Part shown: positions 30,614 to 44,836 of the stretch, piece by piece
How positions within the stretch are numbered: the stretch's first letter is position 1
How the letters are laid out: each line of letters opens with the position of its first letter
Source: Escherichia phage dhaeg
Reading direction: 5' to 3' (one strand)
DNA: 64,000 nucleotides
Sequence record: MN850609.1
Made by a program: the position numbers and the translations under genes
The notes under the pieces: generated by a model
Told to the model about the DNA's origin: nothing
Databases searched by the model: none
The model's input: the letters and a program-made list of their open reading frames with translations, nothing else

Positions 30614-30644
30614 GTTTTACAAAGGGCTTTAGTGATGATACTAT
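30614..30644 (+). promoter_or_regulatory. sigma70-type early promoter cassette
   Basis: gTTTACA ... 17 bp ... TACTAT, followed by conserved gacctatcaa-like leader. Confidence 0.55.
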
Positions 30645-31969: not shown

Positions 31970-32043
31970 GGCCCTGTAGCTGGACGGTCAAGCGAGCGAC
32001 TCATAATCGCTGGATGGTGGTTCGATTCCACCCAGGGCCACCA
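31970..32043 (+). tRNA. tRNA with CAU anticodon (Met or lysidine-type Ile)
   Basis: Hand-folded cloverleaf: acceptor GGCCCUG/CAGGGCC, anticodon stem AGCGA/UCGCU with loop CUCAUAA, T-arm GGUGG-UUCGAUU-CCACC, encoded CCA. Confidence 0.75.
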
Positions 32044-32047
32044 ATTT

Positions 32048-32122
32048 GGATGTGTAGCTCAGTGGTAGAGCAGTTGACTGTTAATCAATTGGTCCATGGT
32101 TCGAATCCATGCATGTCCGCCA
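32048..32122 (+). tRNA. tRNA-Asn (GUU)
   Basis: Acceptor GGAUGUG/CAUGUCC (two G-U pairs), D-arm GCUC-AGUGGUA-GAGC, anticodon loop CUGUUAA, T-arm CAUGG-UUCGAAU-CCAUG, encoded CCA. Confidence 0.75.
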
Positions 32123-32126
32123 AATA

Positions 32127-32202
32127 CGAGGCATAGCTCAGAAGGAAGAGCAAGGACCTTCTAAGTCCTGGGTCGTAGGTTCGATCCCTACTGTCTCGAC
32201 CA
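32127..32202 (+). tRNA. tRNA-Arg (UCU)
   Basis: Acceptor CGAGGCA/UGUCUCG, D-arm GCUC-AGAAGGAA-GAGC, anticodon stem AGGAC/GUCCU with loop CUUCUAA, T-arm GUAGG-UUCGAUC-CCUAC, encoded CCA. Confidence 0.8.
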
Positions 32203-32372
32203 AACAAGAAACCGGGTCGCTACCGGTAAGTCGTCGGACTGAAGTTCCCTGAATAAGACCCGACTTTAAGGCGTACATGAGTTCCTCTTAAAGTCCCTTA
32301 TCTCACAGCTGAAACGGCGCACCGAACACTTGCCTAGCAGGTGGAACCCCGACAAGGTTACCCTAGGTTAAA
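32203..32372 (+). ncRNA. structured non-coding RNA region downstream of tRNA-Arg (candidate small stable RNA)
   Basis: About 170 nt without a convincing ORF between the last tRNA and a terminator; stems such as CGGGUC...GACCCG; T4 has small stable RNAs in this position. Confidence 0.35.
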
Positions 32373-32400
32373 GGCCCTTCCGAAAGGTTGGGCCTTTTTT
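32373..32400 (+). terminator. rho-independent terminator ending the tRNA/RNA transcription unit
   Basis: GGCCCuuCC-GAAA-GGuuGGGCC followed by TTTTTT. Confidence 0.6.
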
Positions 32401-32401
32401 G

Positions 32402-32409
32402 TATAAATA
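32402..32409 (+). promoter_or_regulatory. late promoter (TATAAATA)
   Basis: Exact TATAAATA 28 nt upstream of the ATG at 32438. Confidence 0.6.
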
Positions 32410-32437
32410 GATAAGTTAATTAACACAGGAAACAATA

Positions 32438-33061
32438 ATGAAAACTTACAATGAATTTTTGAACGAAAGCGTTCTGACTGAAGCCAGCGTGCGCATGACT
32501 AAAGATATGTGGCAAGCTGCTTATGATAAAATTTCCGGGACTAAAACCACTACCGAGTTCTTTAAAAACGTTTATGATATGTATGGTTTTGATACTAGTA
32601 ACCAGAAAGAATATTACAAAGCTTCCAAAGCTTTTAAAGATATCGTAGCCGGTGGCGCTACTAAACCTGCTAAACCAGCTAAAGCTCCTGTTGCTAAACC
32701 TGCAGCCCCAACCAAAGTTGCACCACCTAAACCTGCGGCAGCACCTAAAGCAGAGCCTGTAAAAGAAGCTCCTAAACCTAAAATCAAGTTCGACACCAGC
32801 ACTATTGTTAAAAAATATAACCAACTGGCTTCTTTGGTTTCTGAAATAGAATCCGAAACTAAACACCTTGTTCGTGAATTCAATGTTCTTCGTAACGGTC
32901 AACACATTAACAACCTGGACACACCAGACCTTTATCGTCTCTATCTGACGGTTGAAGGCCTTAAGTACACCCAGCCTATGCGCGAAGAAATTGACAACAA
33001 ACTTCGTCAAGCACGCCGACTGGCCGGTGACGCAGCTCAGTTCGAAAAGACTCGTAAATAA
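32438..33061 (+). CDS. internal-protein-like protein with capsid-targeting-sequence-like N-terminus and Pro/Ala/Lys-rich linker
   Basis: 207 aa; N-terminus MKTYNEFLNES...LTEA; low-complexity KPAKPAKAPVAKPAAPTKVAPPKPAAAPKAEP linker; late promoter upstream. Confidence 0.6.
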   Translation: MKTYNEFLNESVLTEASVRMTKDMWQAAYDKISGTKTTTEFFKNVYDMYGFDTSNQKEYYKASKAFKDIVAGGATKPAKPAKAPVAKPAAPTKVAPPKPAAAPKAEPVKEAPKPKIKFDTSTIVKKYNQLASLVSEIESETKHLVREFNVLRNGQHINNLDTPDLYRLYLTVEGLKYTQPMREEIDNKLRQARRLAGDAAQFEKTRK

Positions 33062-33120: not shown

Positions 33121-33149
33121 GTTTACACCTCCTTTAAACGTGATACTAT
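33121..33149 (+). promoter_or_regulatory. sigma70-type early promoter cassette
   Basis: GTTTACA-16-TACTAT plus conserved leader; -35-proximal CCTCCTT can pair with downstream AAGGAG RBS. Confidence 0.55.
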
Positions 33150-41666: not shown

Positions 41667-41674
41667 TATAAATA
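41667..41674 (+). promoter_or_regulatory. late promoter (TATAAATA) for gene e
   Basis: Exact TATAAATA 22 nt upstream of e ATG, overlapping the 5' arm of an RBS-sequestering hairpin. Confidence 0.7.
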
Positions 41675-41694
41675 CCTCCTATAATCAGGAGGTA
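41673..41694 (+). promoter_or_regulatory. RBS-sequestering hairpin in the e leader
   Basis: TACCTCCT-ataatc-AGGAGGTA; 3' arm is the Shine-Dalgarno for e. Confidence 0.7.
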
Positions 41695-41696
41695 TT

Positions 41697-42185
41697 ATGG
41701 ATATTTTTGATATGTTACGTCAAGACGAAGGTCTTGATTTAAATCTTTATAAAGACACCGAAGGTTATTGGACTATTGGTATAGGCCAATTGATTACTAA
41801 GAACCCATCTAAAGATGTTGCTCGCGCTGAACTTGATAAGCTTATGGGTCGAGTTTGTAATGGTCGTATTACTATGGCTGAAGCCGAACAACTCTTTAAT
41901 CGTTCAGTAGAAAATGCCCGTAGAGCTATAACGCGCAATCCTAAATTGAAACCGGTTTATGATGTGCTAGACGAAGTTCGTCGTTGCGCATTGATTAATA
42001 TGGTCTTCCAAATGGGTGAAGCTGGTGTAGCGGGATTTACCAACTCTCTGCGTATGCTCCAACAAAAACGTTGGGATGACGCCGCAGTTAACCTGGCGCA
42101 GTCTCGTTGGTACAAGCAAACCCCTAATCGTGCCAAGCGTGTTATCGCCACCTTTAAAACAGGTACTTGGGCCGCTTATAGATAA
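41697..42185 (+). CDS. e: endolysin (T4 lysozyme)
   Basis: 162 aa; ...[26 protein letters not shown] ... [52 protein letters not shown] matches recalled T4 lysozyme. Confidence 0.95.
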
Positions 42186-42190
42186 AAGCA

Positions 42191-42219
42191 GTTTACATCT
42201 CCGGTAGGCATGATACTAT
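42191..42219 (+). promoter_or_regulatory. early promoter cassette for denV
   Basis: GTTTACA-16-TACTAT plus gacctatcaactacaggagatta leader; near-identical copy at 44321. Confidence 0.6.
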
Positions 42220-42245
42220 AGACCTATCAACTACAGGAGATTAAA

Positions 42246-42662
42246 ATGACTCGTATCAACCTTACCTTAGTATCTGAATTGGCTGACCAACACTTAATGG
42301 CTGAATATCGTGAATTGCCACGTGTTTTCGGTGCAGTTCGAAAGCATGTTGCTAACGGTAAACGTGTTCGTGATTTTAAAATCAGCCCTACTTTTATCCT
42401 TGGTACAGGCCATGTCACATTCTTTTATGATAAGCTTGAATTTTTACGTAAGCGTCAAATCGAGCTTATAGCCGAATGTTTAAAACGTGGCTTTAATATC
42501 AAGGATACTACGGTCCAGGACATTAGTGATATTCCTCAGGAATTCCGTGGTGATTATGTTCTTCACGAAGCTTCTATCGCTATTTCACAAGCCCGTTTGG
42601 ATGAAAAAATTGCACAACGTCCTACCTGGTACAAACATTATGGTAAGGCGATTTATGCATAA
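42246..42662 (+). CDS. denV: endonuclease V (pyrimidine dimer DNA glycosylase)
   Basis: 138 aa; almost identical to recalled T4 DenV ([50 protein letters not shown]...). Confidence 0.97.
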
Positions 42663-42800
42663 GGGAGCAACCTGGACCTCACAATTCTGTGAGGGACTCC
42701 CGCCAACCTGTAATAAGGTCGAGCCCAAGTGCGGTAATGGGTAAATGCAGAAAGGGACGAATTAATGTGCCAAGGAACGGCCCACAACTAAGAGACAACT

Positions 42801-43328
42801 ATGAAATTTTTAACCCCCATTTATCTAACCTTAATGCACGCCTTCGCTGAACGCGCCATTGAACGTTTAGACTCAGACCAATATACCTGGTATGAACCTA
42901 CTTCAAGAATGCAAGAGTTTGGTACTCTTCGACTTGACGGTGGGCGTCAAACAGGTAAAACAAGTGCCATTGCCCAGTTCGCAGCTGATTGGGTTTCCAA
43001 GGGTAATGATGTGATTGTTATGTCAAGTTCTTCGCACCGGTCACGCGAAATTTGTAATGTAATAAAAAGGGTTTCTAAGGCCCAACCACACCTTCAAGTA
43101 GAAGGTCCTGGGTTTGTTGTATATGATACCGTACGTTCATTTTTAGACGAAGATAACTTCCATAAGTATCGTGGTCTATCAGTTACTCGATTATTGATTA
43201 TTATCGAAGAGCCAATGCGCCTTCCAGCGATGGATAAGTTCTATGAAGCTTACCAGGTAATGATGAATAAATTTATGTGCCAGGGTTCTAAACCTCTGCC
43301 GCTGTTCTTTGTGATAGGAATGCAATGA
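42801..43328 (+). CDS. small P-loop NTPase-like protein
   Basis: 175 aa; Walker A-like GGRQTGKTS and Walker B-like LLIIIEEP. Confidence 0.55.
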   Translation: MKFLTPIYLTLMHAFAERAIERLDSDQYTWYEPTSRMQEFGTLRLDGGRQTGKTSAIAQFAADWVSKGNDVIVMSSSSHRSREICNVIKRVSKAQPHLQVEGPGFVVYDTVRSFLDEDNFHKYRGLSVTRLLIIIEEPMRLPAMDKFYEAYQVMMNKFMCQGSKPLPLFFVIGMQ

Positions 43329-43621
43329 TGACTGATGAAGAGCTTTTTGAGTTCTGTTATTTCTCACGTAAGGTTCGAAGAGAGGACCTTACTACAAATT
43401 TCGAATATGCTTATTTCTATCCATTAGAATATGTATTCATGTCAGGGCCCTTTAAGGGCTCTCGTTTTAGATGTCATGCCCCAAGCATCCGATTAATGAA
43501 ACAGGTTCCTTACTTCACTCTCGAGTTCATCTCTGGGCCGTGTAAGGGTATTATTACTCGCAGTCTCTTGACGTATGACCAAGAGATTCATATGATTTCT
43601 GACTGGAAAAAATATGTCTAA
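43325..43621 (+). CDS. hypothetical protein with internal SGP[FC]KG repeat
   Basis: 98 aa; ATGA overlap with upstream gene. Confidence 0.45.
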   Translation: MMTDEELFEFCYFSRKVRREDLTTNFEYAYFYPLEYVFMSGPFKGSRFRCHAPSIRLMKQVPYFTLEFISGPCKGIITRSLLTYDQEIHMISDWKKYV

Positions 43622-43832
43622 ATTGACAATTGAAGGCTCTGATGAAGCTCTGAAGAGATTTGTTGAATGGTTTAATGGGCCGGGTGAACAAGACTTTCTG
43701 GAAGTCTGGGACGGCGGCCAATGGAATGGTAAAGAAATTGTTTACCCAACTACTTATATCTCCGTGCAAGGTTGGACTGAAGGCCTTCGTTTGGTGGAAT
43801 ATGATATCGCAACTGGCGAGGAAGTGAAATGA
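43614..43832 (+). CDS. hypothetical protein
   Basis: 72 aa; overlapping start. Confidence 0.45.
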   Translation: MSKLTIEGSDEALKRFVEWFNGPGEQDFLEVWDGGQWNGKEIVYPTTYISVQGWTEGLRLVEYDIATGEEVK

Positions 43833-44107
43833 TTGAAGACATCAAAGGTTACAAGCCACATACCGACGATAAAATAGGTAAAGTGAATGCCATTAAAGAT
43901 GCTGAAGTTCGATTGGGCTTAATCTTTAAAGCATTAGAAGAAGAATATGTTGAAGCCTTTACATGCTCCGGTGTTGATAAAATGAGTGATGAAGAATTCG
44001 ACCTTACTCATGAACGCCTCGCCCAGATTCGTACGGCAATCGAACGCTTGAAAGAAGCATCCATGTGGGCCTGTCGTTCCGTTTTCCAACCGGAAGAGAA
44101 ATACTAA
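43829..44107 (+). CDS. hypothetical protein
   Basis: 92 aa; ATGA overlap. Confidence 0.45.
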   Translation: MIEDIKGYKPHTDDKIGKVNAIKDAEVRLGLIFKALEEEYVEAFTCSGVDKMSDEEFDLTHERLAQIRTAIERLKEASMWACRSVFQPEEKY

Positions 44108-44316
44108 TGAAAATCGAAAGTTTGCAAGAATTCCAACGTATCATCAGTGAAGCCTGTACTGGCTACCACAAATACTTGCTTGACGACCAAATGGCTTGTA
44201 TTGAAGAAGGTGAATTGCAGTACGCAGCCCAGCGCCTTGAACAGGTGAAAGAGTTTTATCCGGTGCTGGTAGAAATTTGTTCTGCTGTCGGAAAACTTAC
44301 CCCATTCCAAGAATAA
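44107..44316 (+). CDS. hypothetical protein
   Basis: 69 aa from ATG 44107 (ORF-track start 44065 is an alternative start). Confidence 0.45.
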   Translation: MKIESLQEFQRIISEACTGYHKYLLDDQMACIEEGELQYAAQRLEQVKEFYPVLVEICSAVGKLTPFQE

Positions 44317-44320
44317 AGCA

Positions 44321-44349
44321 GTTTACATCTCCTGTAGACGTGGTACTAT
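44321..44349 (+). promoter_or_regulatory. early promoter cassette for regB (direct repeat of the denV cassette)
   Basis: GTTTACA-16-TACTAT; about 60-bp near-identical repeat of 42185-42245. Confidence 0.6.
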
Positions 44350-44377
44350 AGACCTATCAACTACAGGAGATTACAAA

Positions 44378-44836
44378 ATGTCAGAAATTAATTCAGAAGT
44401 ATTCATCCGCCGCAACAAATTACGTCGTCAGTTCGAAACCGAATTTCGTGAACTTAACGCGTCCATCAAAAAAGCCGCCATTAAGAGCGGTGTCCCAGCT
44501 TTCTTTATTAAGTACTCTAATCACTTGTTGGACCGTGCTATCCAACGTGAAATTGACGAAAAATATGTTTTCTCTTTGTTCAAGAAGCTCCATAATCATG
44601 TTAAAGAAATCCATGAATTTTTAATCCAGGAGCCTCTTCCTGACATAGAATCTGAAATTGTCCCAGGTAAAGTGTATCGTCCACTGCGTCTCGAGATTAC
44701 CGATAAAACCTTATGGTTGGGTATGACCGTAGATCGTAAACATCCTGATAAAGGATATTCATTAAAATGTCGTATGGCATTTGTTAATTCTAAACGTTTA
44801 GAAGGTAAAACCAGCACGAAAGTAATCTATCTTTAA
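44378..44836 (+). CDS. regB: site-specific RNA endonuclease RegB
   Basis: 152 aa; EVFIRRNKLRR.FE.EFR ... HLLDRAIQREIDE.YVF ... RLEITD..LWLG matches recalled T4 RegB. Confidence 0.9.
   Translation: MSEINSEVFIRRNKLRRQFETEFRELNASIKKAAIKSGVPAFFIKYSNHLLDRAIQREIDEKYVFSLFKKLHNHVKEIHEFLIQEPLPDIESEIVPGKVYRPLRLEITDKTLWLGMTVDRKHPDKGYSLKCRMAFVNSKRLEGKTSTKVIYL

Follow-up and report, generated by a model that had tools for sequence, protein, structure and literature searches.

The DNA analysed here (the window) is a stretch of 64,000 nucleotides (nt) from Escherichia phage dhaeg, sequence record MN850609.1. The locus under study runs from the lysozyme gene e over denV and five small open reading frames (ORFs) to regB, and its features are listed in Table 1. 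Two near-identical promoter cassettes stand directly upstream of denV and of regB, and the gap proper between denV and the first small ORF measures 138 bp (42663-42800). A first-pass annotation of the window had recorded these contents, including a P-loop protein of 175 amino acids (aa), and this part of its description was correct. The region is the e–denV–vs–regB early region, ordinary for a Dhakavirus-type T4-like phage. The explanation that best accounts for the whole, and which we consider highly probable, combines an ancestral vs block, promoter-early stem-loop (PeSL) cassettes, a duplication of one cassette confined to a clade, hairpins that would occlude ribosome-binding sites, and cassettes that would serve as crossover points.

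Table 1. Features of the e–denV–vs–regB region in the window (SD, Shine-Dalgarno sequence; CBASS, cyclic-oligonucleotide-based antiphage signalling system).
Feature	Position	Strand	Remarks
e leader	41667..41696	+	late promoter TATAAATA, then hairpin ACCTCC...GGAGGT, predicted to occlude the e SD
e, T4-type lysozyme, 162 aa	41697..42185	+	74% aa identity to T4 e; nucleotide ~69%
Cassette 1, putative PeSL-type early promoter of denV	42186..42245	+	between e and denV
Cassette 1 layout	−35 GTTTAC 42191-42196; −10 TACTAT 42214-42219; SD GGAG 42236-42239	+	17-nt spacer; TG upstream of −10
Cassette 1 hairpin arms	42197-42207 and 42231-42241	+	ATCTCCGGTAG and CTACAGGAGAT
denV, endonuclease V, pyrimidine-dimer glycosylase, 138 aa	42246..42662	+	97% aa identity to T4 DenV
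Structured non-coding element, A-type, vs.8 leader	42661..42800	+	covariance-model match 42661-42749, 60.3 bits
Element helices P1 and P2			P1 GGGAG/CTCCC around hairpin CCTCACA/TGTGAGG; P2 CCC/GGG around P3 and P4
Element helices P3 and P4			P3 (A)CCU-GUAAUA-AGG(U); P4 GC..GC
Element invariant core	42707-42737		CCTGTAATAAGGTCGAGCCCAAGTGCGGTAA
Element 3' half	about 42769-42785		AGGGAC + hairpin GCC-AAGGAAC-GGC
vs.8 homologue, 175 aa, predicted P-loop NTPase	42801..43328	+	38.5% identity to T4 vs.8 residues 44-219
vs.7 homologue, 98 aa	43325..43621	+	48% identity to T4 vs.7, E 6e-32; phrog_2049
vs.5 positional homologue, 72 aa	43614..43832	+	phrog_1986, E 6e-36
vs.4 = Acb2 family, predicted anti-CBASS cyclic-oligonucleotide sponge, 92 aa	43829..44107	+	67% identity to T4 Vs.4
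vs.3 homologue, 69 aa	44107..44316	+	T4 vs.3 41% over 68 aa, E 2e-19; phrog_2037
Cassette 2, putative PeSL-type early promoter of regB	44317..44377	+	between vs.3 and regB
Cassette 2 layout	−35 GTTTAC 44321-44326; −10 TACTAT 44344-44349; SD GGAG 44366-44369	+	
Cassette 2 hairpin arms	44327-44337 and 44361-44371	+	ATCTCCTGTAG and CTACAGGAGAT
regB, sequence-specific endoribonuclease cutting GGAG, 152 aa	44378..44836	+	T4 RegB 59%; PF10715, E 2e-69

Gene order of the region

In database searches the region was 98% identical to Escherichia phage dhabil, with JS10, Bp7 and IME08 also close (all Dhakavirus), and 794 T4-type phage records were matched. The gene order in T4 (NC_000866) is e–ipIII–ipII–denV–vs.8–vs.7–vs.6–vs.5–vs.4–vs.3–regB–vs.1. 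The first-pass annotation had placed regB next to denV in T4, which this map contradicts, with the genes vs.8 to vs.3 lying between them. A colinear order, e–(ip)–denV–vs.8–vs.7–(vs.6)–vs.5–vs.4–(vs.3)–regB–vs.1, was found in 38 of 43 T4-type loci of the synteny table, and the five non-colinear loci were jumbo contigs of 346-378 kb. Synteny reached phages with only ~60% DenV identity. The same order was obtained from 18 loci anchored on regB, mostly on the same contigs as the synteny table. With vs.3 presence or absence scored using T4 vs.3 as the query, the only variable members among the T4-type loci were the ip genes, vs.6, vs.7 and vs.3. Because its order is kept in 38 of the 43 loci, the denV–vs block is ancestral and syntenic across T4-type phages.

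The enclosed genes had been described as extra ORFs separating denV from regB and as a recently shuffled accessory module. They are instead homologues of vs.8, vs.7, vs.5 (N-terminus), vs.4 and vs.3 in the position that they occupy in the 38 loci, and the idea of recent shuffling fails on both this conserved position and the mistaken T4 map. It is very improbable that the denV-to-vs.3 block, or its five ORFs, was recently inserted by recombination at the flanking repeats. Direct repeats do flank the block, PeSL-flanked ORFs can excise as mini-circles in RB49/phi1 (PMC2839356), no ip genes stand on the left side, and vs.3 varies between phages; however, these genes are found at this place in T4 too, all five ORFs have homologues there, the synteny persists down to the DenV identity given above, and relatives with different vs.3 content share an identical regB-side cassette. 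Recognising the vs cluster together with its PeSL promoters avoids the false report of a new accessory module. PeSL repeats are well known as vehicles by which T4-type genomes shuffle modules, but this does not make the enclosed block new.

The absence of ipII and ipIII between e and denV, noted in the first reading, was seen in dhabil as well, and ip genes or their relatives are present in T4 and JS10. An ip-like gene (MKTYNEFLNES...) was observed at window positions 32400-32700, after the tRNA/rnaD region, with a late promoter (TATAAATA) just upstream. The phage therefore has ip-type genes, though not between e and denV.

Two near-identical promoter cassettes

The repeat finder detected a direct repeat of 67 nt with 90% identity at 42180-42246 and 44310-44376, 2130 nt apart. 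A 53-nt consensus with four N positions matched exactly these two sites in the window, compared with 0.00 expected from shuffled sequences, and the ~60-bp near-identity reported earlier is thus not a matter of chance. Both copies followed the pattern GTTTAC, 17 nt, TACTAT, 22-24 nt, GGAG and ATG, with a promoter-like site carrying a TG extension upstream of the −10 and with GGAG placed 6-8 nt before ATG. Inside each cassette there was an inverted repeat, ATCTCC(T/G)GTAG ... CTACAGGAGAT, the 3' arm of which includes the SD. Between the upstream stop codon and the −35, the stretch looked at for an AT-rich tract, there were only about 5-10 nt (ATAAAAGCA and AATAAAGCA).

The plus strand of the window held at least 16 early-promoter cassettes, among which the denV and regB copies were the most similar pair. 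The −10/+1 module TGATACTATAGxCCTATCAA was present in about nine of them (30615, 30966, 33121, 39133, 42191, 44321, 48456, 53362 and, in part, 51961). A stem between an anti-SD and the SD was also visible in the cassettes at 33121, 48456, 53362 and 60248, and at 30615, 30966 and 39133 the spacer and the +1 region were bridged by a stem.

The main difference between the two cassettes was the tail after GGAG, GGAGAUUAAAAUG for denV (42236-42246) and GGAGAUUACAAAAUG for regB (44366-44378). Under the cleavage rules given by Durand et al. 2006, RegB/S1 cuts less readily when position 9 is a C. By these rules, the denV leader (GGAGAUUAAAA) is predicted to be sensitive to RegB and the regB leader (GGAGAUUACAA, with C at position 9) to be resistant. 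This prediction is the reverse of the situation in T4, where denV is resistant and regB cuts its own SD.

Assignment of the cassettes to the PeSL class

PeSL cassettes of T4-type phages were described by Arbiol et al. 2010 (PMC2839356) and Comeau et al. 2014 (PMC4122927), and had been foreshadowed for the ip locus by Repoila et al. 1994. Four elements mark a PeSL, namely an early promoter of sigma70-like type (TTTACW-N17-TAYWAT in T4/PST), a stem-loop, an SD and the ATG; copies recur through hyperplastic regions and have been linked to indels and to the formation of mini-circles (PMC2839356, PMC4122927). Their stems are commonly located between −35 and −10 or over the −10 (PMC2839356). The regB gene is known to carry a typical early promoter.

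Both window cassettes were intergenic and directly upstream of an ORF, and GTTTACA-N17-TACTAT in both copies fitted the T4/PST consensus. In both, an 11-bp stem spanned spacer and leader, and the SD and start codon stood at the 3' end as the class requires. Breakpoints relative to JS10 and T4 were at 42176-42202 and 44315. Judged by these sequence features, both repeats are new members of the published PeSL class. They share with it the form of intergenic cassettes of ~60 bp with a strong early promoter, stem-loop, SD and ATG, which are repeated and lie at indel or replacement breakpoints between relatives. They also differ from it. The published stem-loop is a terminator or attenuator; in PST/T4 it is located upstream of the promoter, and in RB49 it lies between −35 and −10 or covers the −10. 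A translational role is not mentioned in Arbiol 2010 (PMC2839356). In the cassettes studied here, the stem extends across the promoter, the downstream gene's SD forms its 3' arm, and its arms covary in a lineage-specific manner. The content between the window copies is ancestral and core-like, not ORFans.

A predicted hairpin over promoter and Shine-Dalgarno sequence

The hairpin of cassette 1 had a folding energy of −14.7 kcal/mol (z-score −2.8) and that of cassette 2 of −18.3 kcal/mol (z-score −3.8). Across all T4-type lineages examined, both genes, denV and regB, had an individual early promoter directly upstream, and a stretch of this promoter was complementary to the SD region of its own gene. 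The sequences involved differed between lineages, giving lineage-specific arm pairs such as CTCCGTTTG/CAAACGGAG, TCCTCCAAG/CTTGGAGGA and TCTCCTGTAGATG/CATCTACAGGAGA. Over 62 distinct denV and regB cassettes, the mean energy of promoter–leader pairing was −15.4 kcal/mol for cognate and −10.0 kcal/mol for non-cognate combinations, a difference for which none of 5000 permutations gave a value as low. The trend was repeated in 17 cassettes of the window.

By promoter geometry, transcription is predicted to start ~7 nt past the −10 (near 42226 and 44356), beyond the 5' arm. The modelled probability of an unpaired SD in read-through RNA was 0.002 for denV and 0.000 for regB. In modelled denV RNA starting ~7 nt after the −10 of its own promoter, it rose to 0.44. 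No terminator was predicted upstream of the cassettes.

We propose that the promoter lies inside a hairpin, with the 5' arm, located in the −35/−10 spacer, acting as an anti-SD and the 3' arm formed by the SD of the downstream gene. Transcripts from the own promoter would lack the 5' arm and would be translatable. Read-through transcripts would fold the hairpin, their ribosome-binding site would be occluded, and we infer from the modelled folds that they would be translationally silent. Translation of denV and regB would thereby be tied to their own early promoters. Because RegB is inhibited by secondary structure, the paired GGAG of read-through RNA would also be shielded from RegB. The locus would then comprise two successive early transcription units, one of denV, the structured leader and vs.8–vs.7–vs.5–vs.4(Acb2)–vs.3, and the next from regB onward, each opening with a PeSL-type cassette (GTTTAC-N17-TACTAT, SD, ATG).

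A comparable layout occurs at the neighbouring e gene, where the leader arrangement listed in Table 1 is kept in T4, dhabil and JS10. The T4 e gene reportedly is the classical case of a promoter inside a hairpin that occludes the ribosome-binding site, and T4 soc and I-TevI are likewise said to have such a hairpin with an internal late promoter. The cassettes resemble these three in that the promoter is within the hairpin, the 3' arm is the SD, and only transcripts begun at that promoter are, or here would be, translated. The difference is one of timing. The known cases use late promoters (TATAAATA) and delay translation, whereas the cassettes are early and, by analogy, would restrict translation to the early period.

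It is possible, though we find it rather doubtful, that the cassette hairpin is not an occluder of the ribosome-binding site and is instead a transcription attenuator or terminator, or a DNA-level inverted repeat for recombination or protein binding. An RB49 PeSL stem-loop cut the expression of downstream lacZ like a strong terminator, and crossovers were mapped inside PeSLs (PMC2839356); in our data, both strands fold equally and breakpoints lie in the cassettes. The stem is not, however, followed by a U-tract (AUUAAAAUG and AUUACAAAAUG are there instead), so it is not a canonical intrinsic terminator. A terminator or a recombination site needs no SD arm, yet the 3' arm was always the downstream SD and the 5' arm covaried with it in many lineages. 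The promoter-in-hairpin logic of the neighbouring e gene also speaks against this reading.

Several observations weigh against the proposed occlusion of the ribosome-binding site. The modelled own-promoter RNA of regB was also mostly paired at the SD (probability unpaired 0.03), with a weak alternative fold. The cassette folded equally on both strands (−15.77 compared with −15.74 kcal/mol, p = 0.5), and an RNA-level role is therefore inseparable from that of a DNA-level inverted repeat. The denV copy of the window has a G.A mismatch in its stem, which is perfect in T4 and JS10. The start sites, the read-through and the differential translation in this phage are deduced from sequence. Finally, PeSL stem-loops were read by their authors as terminators or attenuators, which was shown for one RB49 PeSL (PMC2839356).

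If the proposed occlusion holds, the anti-SD/SD cassette would extend the translational-insulation logic of e, soc and I-TevI from late to early promoters and give the PeSL stem-loop a second, testable role. The design may explain how tightly packed, co-directional early genes have individual timing despite pervasive read-through.

Origin of the twin cassettes and recombination at them

The denV gene of T4 is preceded by virtually the same cassette (CAGTTTACATCTCCTGTAGGTATGATACTATAGACCTATCAACTACAGGAGAACACTAAAATG), and the T4 regB cassette has the same architecture with a different sequence. The regB cassettes of dhabil and JS10 were identical to that of the window. Twin cassettes, with identities of 0.88-0.90, were found in seven loci of one clade, and elsewhere the denV and regB cassettes were 0.60-0.78 identical. 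The first reading had proposed a search for the same block between the same repeats elsewhere; this arrangement is present within the clade and absent from T4, which has the cassette at denV only. Because the twin state is confined to one clade while T4 has the cassette at denV only, the simplest reading is that a single duplication or gene conversion brought the denV-type cassette in front of regB, in the ancestor shared by the Dhakavirus-type phages.

Beyond one ancestral duplication, the near-identity could also be maintained because selection favours regulating denV and regB alike, with equal promoter strength, timing and leader, or because gene conversion is ongoing, which we consider unlikely. 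The twin state is kept at 88-90% in seven diverged genomes, cassette similarity was 0.72 within genomes and 0.68 between genomes (reached in 1 of 10000 permutations), and similar denV and regB cassettes occur in distant phages such as those with our locus labels L034/L036. But this excess is driven by one clade of kin, and T4 and most lineages have dissimilar cassettes. The A-rich tail after GGAG, which sets the sensitivity to RegB/S1, moreover differs between the copies, indicating that their regulation is not identical.

Alignment with T4 and JS10 placed the breakpoints at the cassettes or at the core of the structured element described below. The insertion boundaries sought in the first reading were located in this sense, but the block itself is not an insertion. 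Compared with T4, window positions 42176-42795 (cassette 1, denV and the 138-bp element) were 91% identical at the nucleotide level, whereas the e side was ~69% identical and the vs.8 side was barely alignable. Compared with JS10, there were three indels, all of which abut a cassette or the RNA core. In the first, JS10 has ipIII and one ORF between e and denV, and the homology overlap, 42190-42202, is inside the cassette. In the second, JS10 has a 99-aa ORF and a different 5' domain between denV and the RNA core. In the third, vs.3 is missing in JS10, and the right boundary is at the start of cassette 2. Cassette 1 of the window is a hybrid, its 5' flank matching the e–ipIII junction of JS10 and its 3' part matching the JS10 denV cassette, and therefore it is a deletion junction. 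Chimeric denV cassettes were also found in L006 and L007.

The cassettes and the conserved RNA core, as short islands of high identity, would serve as crossover points for modular exchange, for example where ip genes have been lost from the e–denV interval, where vs.3 varies and where denV sits in a T4-like module. The earlier suggestion that promoter-cassette repeats mediate modular gain and loss is supported by the position of the breakpoints in the alignments and corresponds to the PeSL model already published (PMC2839356, PMC4122927). Two observations do not favour this role. The left boundary of the vs.3 indel had only a TAA microhomology, so that side was not cassette-mediated, and deletion of the whole block by recombination between the cassettes was seen in no phage among the 18 regB-anchored loci.

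A structured non-coding element upstream of vs.8

The segment between denV and vs.8 had been described as structured and non-coding, and both properties were confirmed, by covariation on 49 copies and by in-frame stops. It is homologous to the T4 denV–vs.8 spacer together with the opening ~40 codons of vs.8 as annotated in T4 (NC_000866, about 64,852-64,940 complement, plus a 3' extension). A 23-nt core, allowing up to 4 mismatches, occurred once each in 37 T4-type loci, nearly always 90-215 nt before the vs.8 start, and a 37-nt stretch around the core was at least 94% identical in phages where DenV was only ~65% identical. An in-frame stop between the core and the vs.8 ATG was present in 29 of 32 distinct loci, and the distance from core to ATG was 0, 1 and 2 modulo 3 in 9, 10 and 13 loci, respectively. 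The element is non-coding.

The structure (P1, P1b/c, P2, P3, P4) was specified by hand and then turned into a covariance model, as RNAalifold on a mixed alignment of A-type and B-type copies gave a poor consensus. On 27 B-type copies, the hand structure was 83% paired, compared with 41-49% when the partners were slid. With the covariance model, A-type copies were recovered, as were the second copies of tandem pairs and copies in other types of phage. In 49 distinct copies, aligned by their fit to the model, which favours the structure, 84.5% of cells were paired compared with at most 52% after sliding, and the covariation score was 0.257 compared with 0.087; neither value was reached in 500 shuffles. 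Changes on both sides were seen in 14 of 26 modelled pairs, and all six P1 pairs covaried. P1 took the forms AAAGG/CCTTT, GGGAG/CTCCC, AGCGC/GCGCT, AATAC/GTATT, AACCC/GGGTT and ACTCC/GGAGT in independent lineages, and among the P1, P2 and P3 substitutions CCC/GGG, CTGG/CCAG and CGCG/TGCG were further independent helix variants. Counts of G.U and A.C wobbles in the element showed no strand asymmetry.

An alternative reading takes the 138-bp segment not as a functional RNA but as coding sequence for the vs.8 N-terminus, following the T4 annotation, or as a remnant in decay; we find it hardly credible. The 219-aa annotation of T4 vs.8 does start inside the segment, and a 53-aa ORF in an alternative frame of the window resembles the T4 vs.8 N-terminus, but the stops and the three spacing phases described above are at odds with a coding sequence, and the vs.8 profile and homologues are ~175 aa long. 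The compensatory changes and the conservation around the core speak against this reading as well, and the element is also found away from vs.8 in unrelated phages. The annotated start of T4 vs.8 is probably over-extended into the element, with the true start likely at M41, and the element is therefore hidden in the T4 annotation. Recognition of the element would correct this probable mis-annotation of the start codon.

From sequence comparison, practically every T4-type phage appears to have the element in a fixed place upstream of vs.8, including phages without denV. In two T4-type loci (L306, L309) there was no detectable denV between e and vs.8, and the element still stood directly upstream of vs.8. 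Two tandem copies were present in some T4-type phages (L013 4416-4632, L021 4413-4630, L026 and L315), the second with a shortened P1 domain and a clean P4 hairpin, e.g., GTC-CGC-GAC. Outside the T4-type phages, the carriers were unrelated (Vequintavirus, with tRNA clusters adjacent; a 45-kb phage, with the element behind the endolysin gene; and a jumbo phage), and the element was always co-oriented with local transcription. It was located directly after the last tRNA of a cluster and before a terminator in L146, and downstream of a tRNA gene in L086, L095 and L121; L311, L321 and Vequintavirus navn had it upstream of a tRNA cluster. It followed the endolysin gene in L153 and phage Ivi, and lay between a terminase gene and a head gene in L130.

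A search of the whole window against Rfam 15 gave no match at the gathering score; A-type and B-type copies of the element gave no Rfam 15 match at E <= 10, and seven loci outside the T4 denV–vs.8 position gave no Rfam match at E <= 1. In bacterial and archaeal genomes, a 15-base core pattern gave chance matches only, among at least 120 matches listed, a result with no bearing on prophages. Literature searches for the motif sequence of the element and for T4 small-RNA maps returned nothing relevant. The element is contained in 1,065 deposited phage genomes, where it is annotated as blank or as a hypothetical protein. On balance, we lean slightly towards the view that it represents a previously undescribed family of structured phage RNAs, with a small three-way junction (P2/P3/P4), a near-invariant core CCUGUAAyAAGGUCkAGCCC..GCGGUAA and a covarying P1 domain upstream. 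Its presence in more than 1,000 sequenced phages including T4, common to several phage families, unannotated and without an Rfam family, would offer RNA biologists a concrete new target within a model system.

In B-type copies, P2 is directly followed by an early-promoter-like GTTTAC-N17-TAnnnT. In these copies, the element may be an elaborate stem-loop of a vs.8 PeSL, that is, an insulator at an operon junction. The A-type copies (window, T4) lack that −35, and vs.8 is therefore probably co-transcribed with denV. Other candidate roles are cis-regulation from the leader, processing into a stable RNA, and binding of a protein, as a leader or as a decoy. The 3' half of the T4-type copies (window 42750-42790) contained two conserved GGA motifs ~18 nt apart, A(U/G)GGAY and, in the loop of the GCC/GGC hairpin, AAGGAAY. 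We take these paired motifs to resemble a CsrA site, the first motif of JS10 (AUACAUGGAUGA) presumably being near the CsrA consensus from SELEX.

Like T4 rnaC and rnaD, the element is a conserved, structured non-coding phage sequence without an assigned function, and in several non-T4-type phages it adjoins tRNA clusters, sometimes followed by a terminator. Unlike them, in T4-type phages it is placed as the mRNA leader of vs.8, outside the tRNA cluster. A direct relationship was rejected; no common motif was seen by inspection, and the covariance model (R1) was empty at the T4 tRNA/rnaC/rnaD locus L171. GOLLD and ROOL are further tRNA-adjacent structured phage RNAs. A group I intron or homing element was also considered, with HNH genes downstream in L121 and L167, and was rejected, as there was no intron model match and no consistent tie to endonucleases. 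A homologue of T4 rnaD (species 2 stable RNA) was observed in the window at 32203-32325, directly after three tRNA genes (31970-32199), beginning with AACAAGAAACCGGGTCGCTACCGGTAAGTCGTCGGACTGA and ending with GAAACGGCGCACCG; an rnaC-like sequence was not obvious.

Proteins encoded between denV and regB

All five window ORFs were homologous to the T4 vs cluster, with the same order and position between denV and regB. The window differed from T4 in having no vs.6 (GrcA-like), a 72-aa vs.5-like ORF that T4 vs.5 matched only at the N-terminus, and a vs.8 of 175 aa compared with 219 aa annotated in T4.

The vs.8 product has the Walker A motif GGRQTGKT and matched phrog_1488 over its full length; the homologues were 172-190 aa long, and two of them carried PF03237 (Terminase_6N). 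An AlphaFold2 (AF2) model from a single sequence was discarded, with a predicted local distance difference test (pLDDT) score of 52. The alignment-based AF2 model had a pLDDT of 88 and showed weak matches only, to terminase and helicase ATPase domains, with template-modelling (TM) scores of about 0.4-0.5. On this model, vs.8 is a predicted single-domain RecA/ASCE-type P-loop NTPase.

Inside the vs.7 coding sequence, a terminator-like hairpin (AGGGCCCTTTAAGGGCTCT, then CGTTTTAGAT) was seen at 43444-43472; such sites were no commoner than in shuffled sequence. A weak Rfam match to a group II intron D5-like model inside vs.7 (E 0.06) was taken as chance.

The 72-aa ORF was present in most T4-type loci and shared 50% identity with T4 vs.5 over the N-terminal 16 aa only. 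Because the match is limited to these residues, T4 vs.5 (58 aa) may be a frameshifted or diverged version of the phrog_1986 ORF. The vs.3 gene, which is missing from dhabil and JS10, starts at 44107, its ATG sharing bases with the stop of vs.4 (TAATG), an overlap also present in T4; starts at 44065 and 44108 are wrong. Together with vs.8 and vs.7, these two ORFs fall in conserved PHROG families without an assigned function.

The description of the block as being of unknown function does not apply to vs.4. Its product matched the Pfam family PF24729 (Acb2/Tad1 hairpin) with an E-value of 3.5e-16 and 59.6 bits, compared with a cut-off of 27, and matched the solved T4 structure PDB 7UQ2 ('Vs.4') with an E-value of 1.4e-30. 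By these matches, vs.4 is Acb2, a predicted anti-CBASS sponge.

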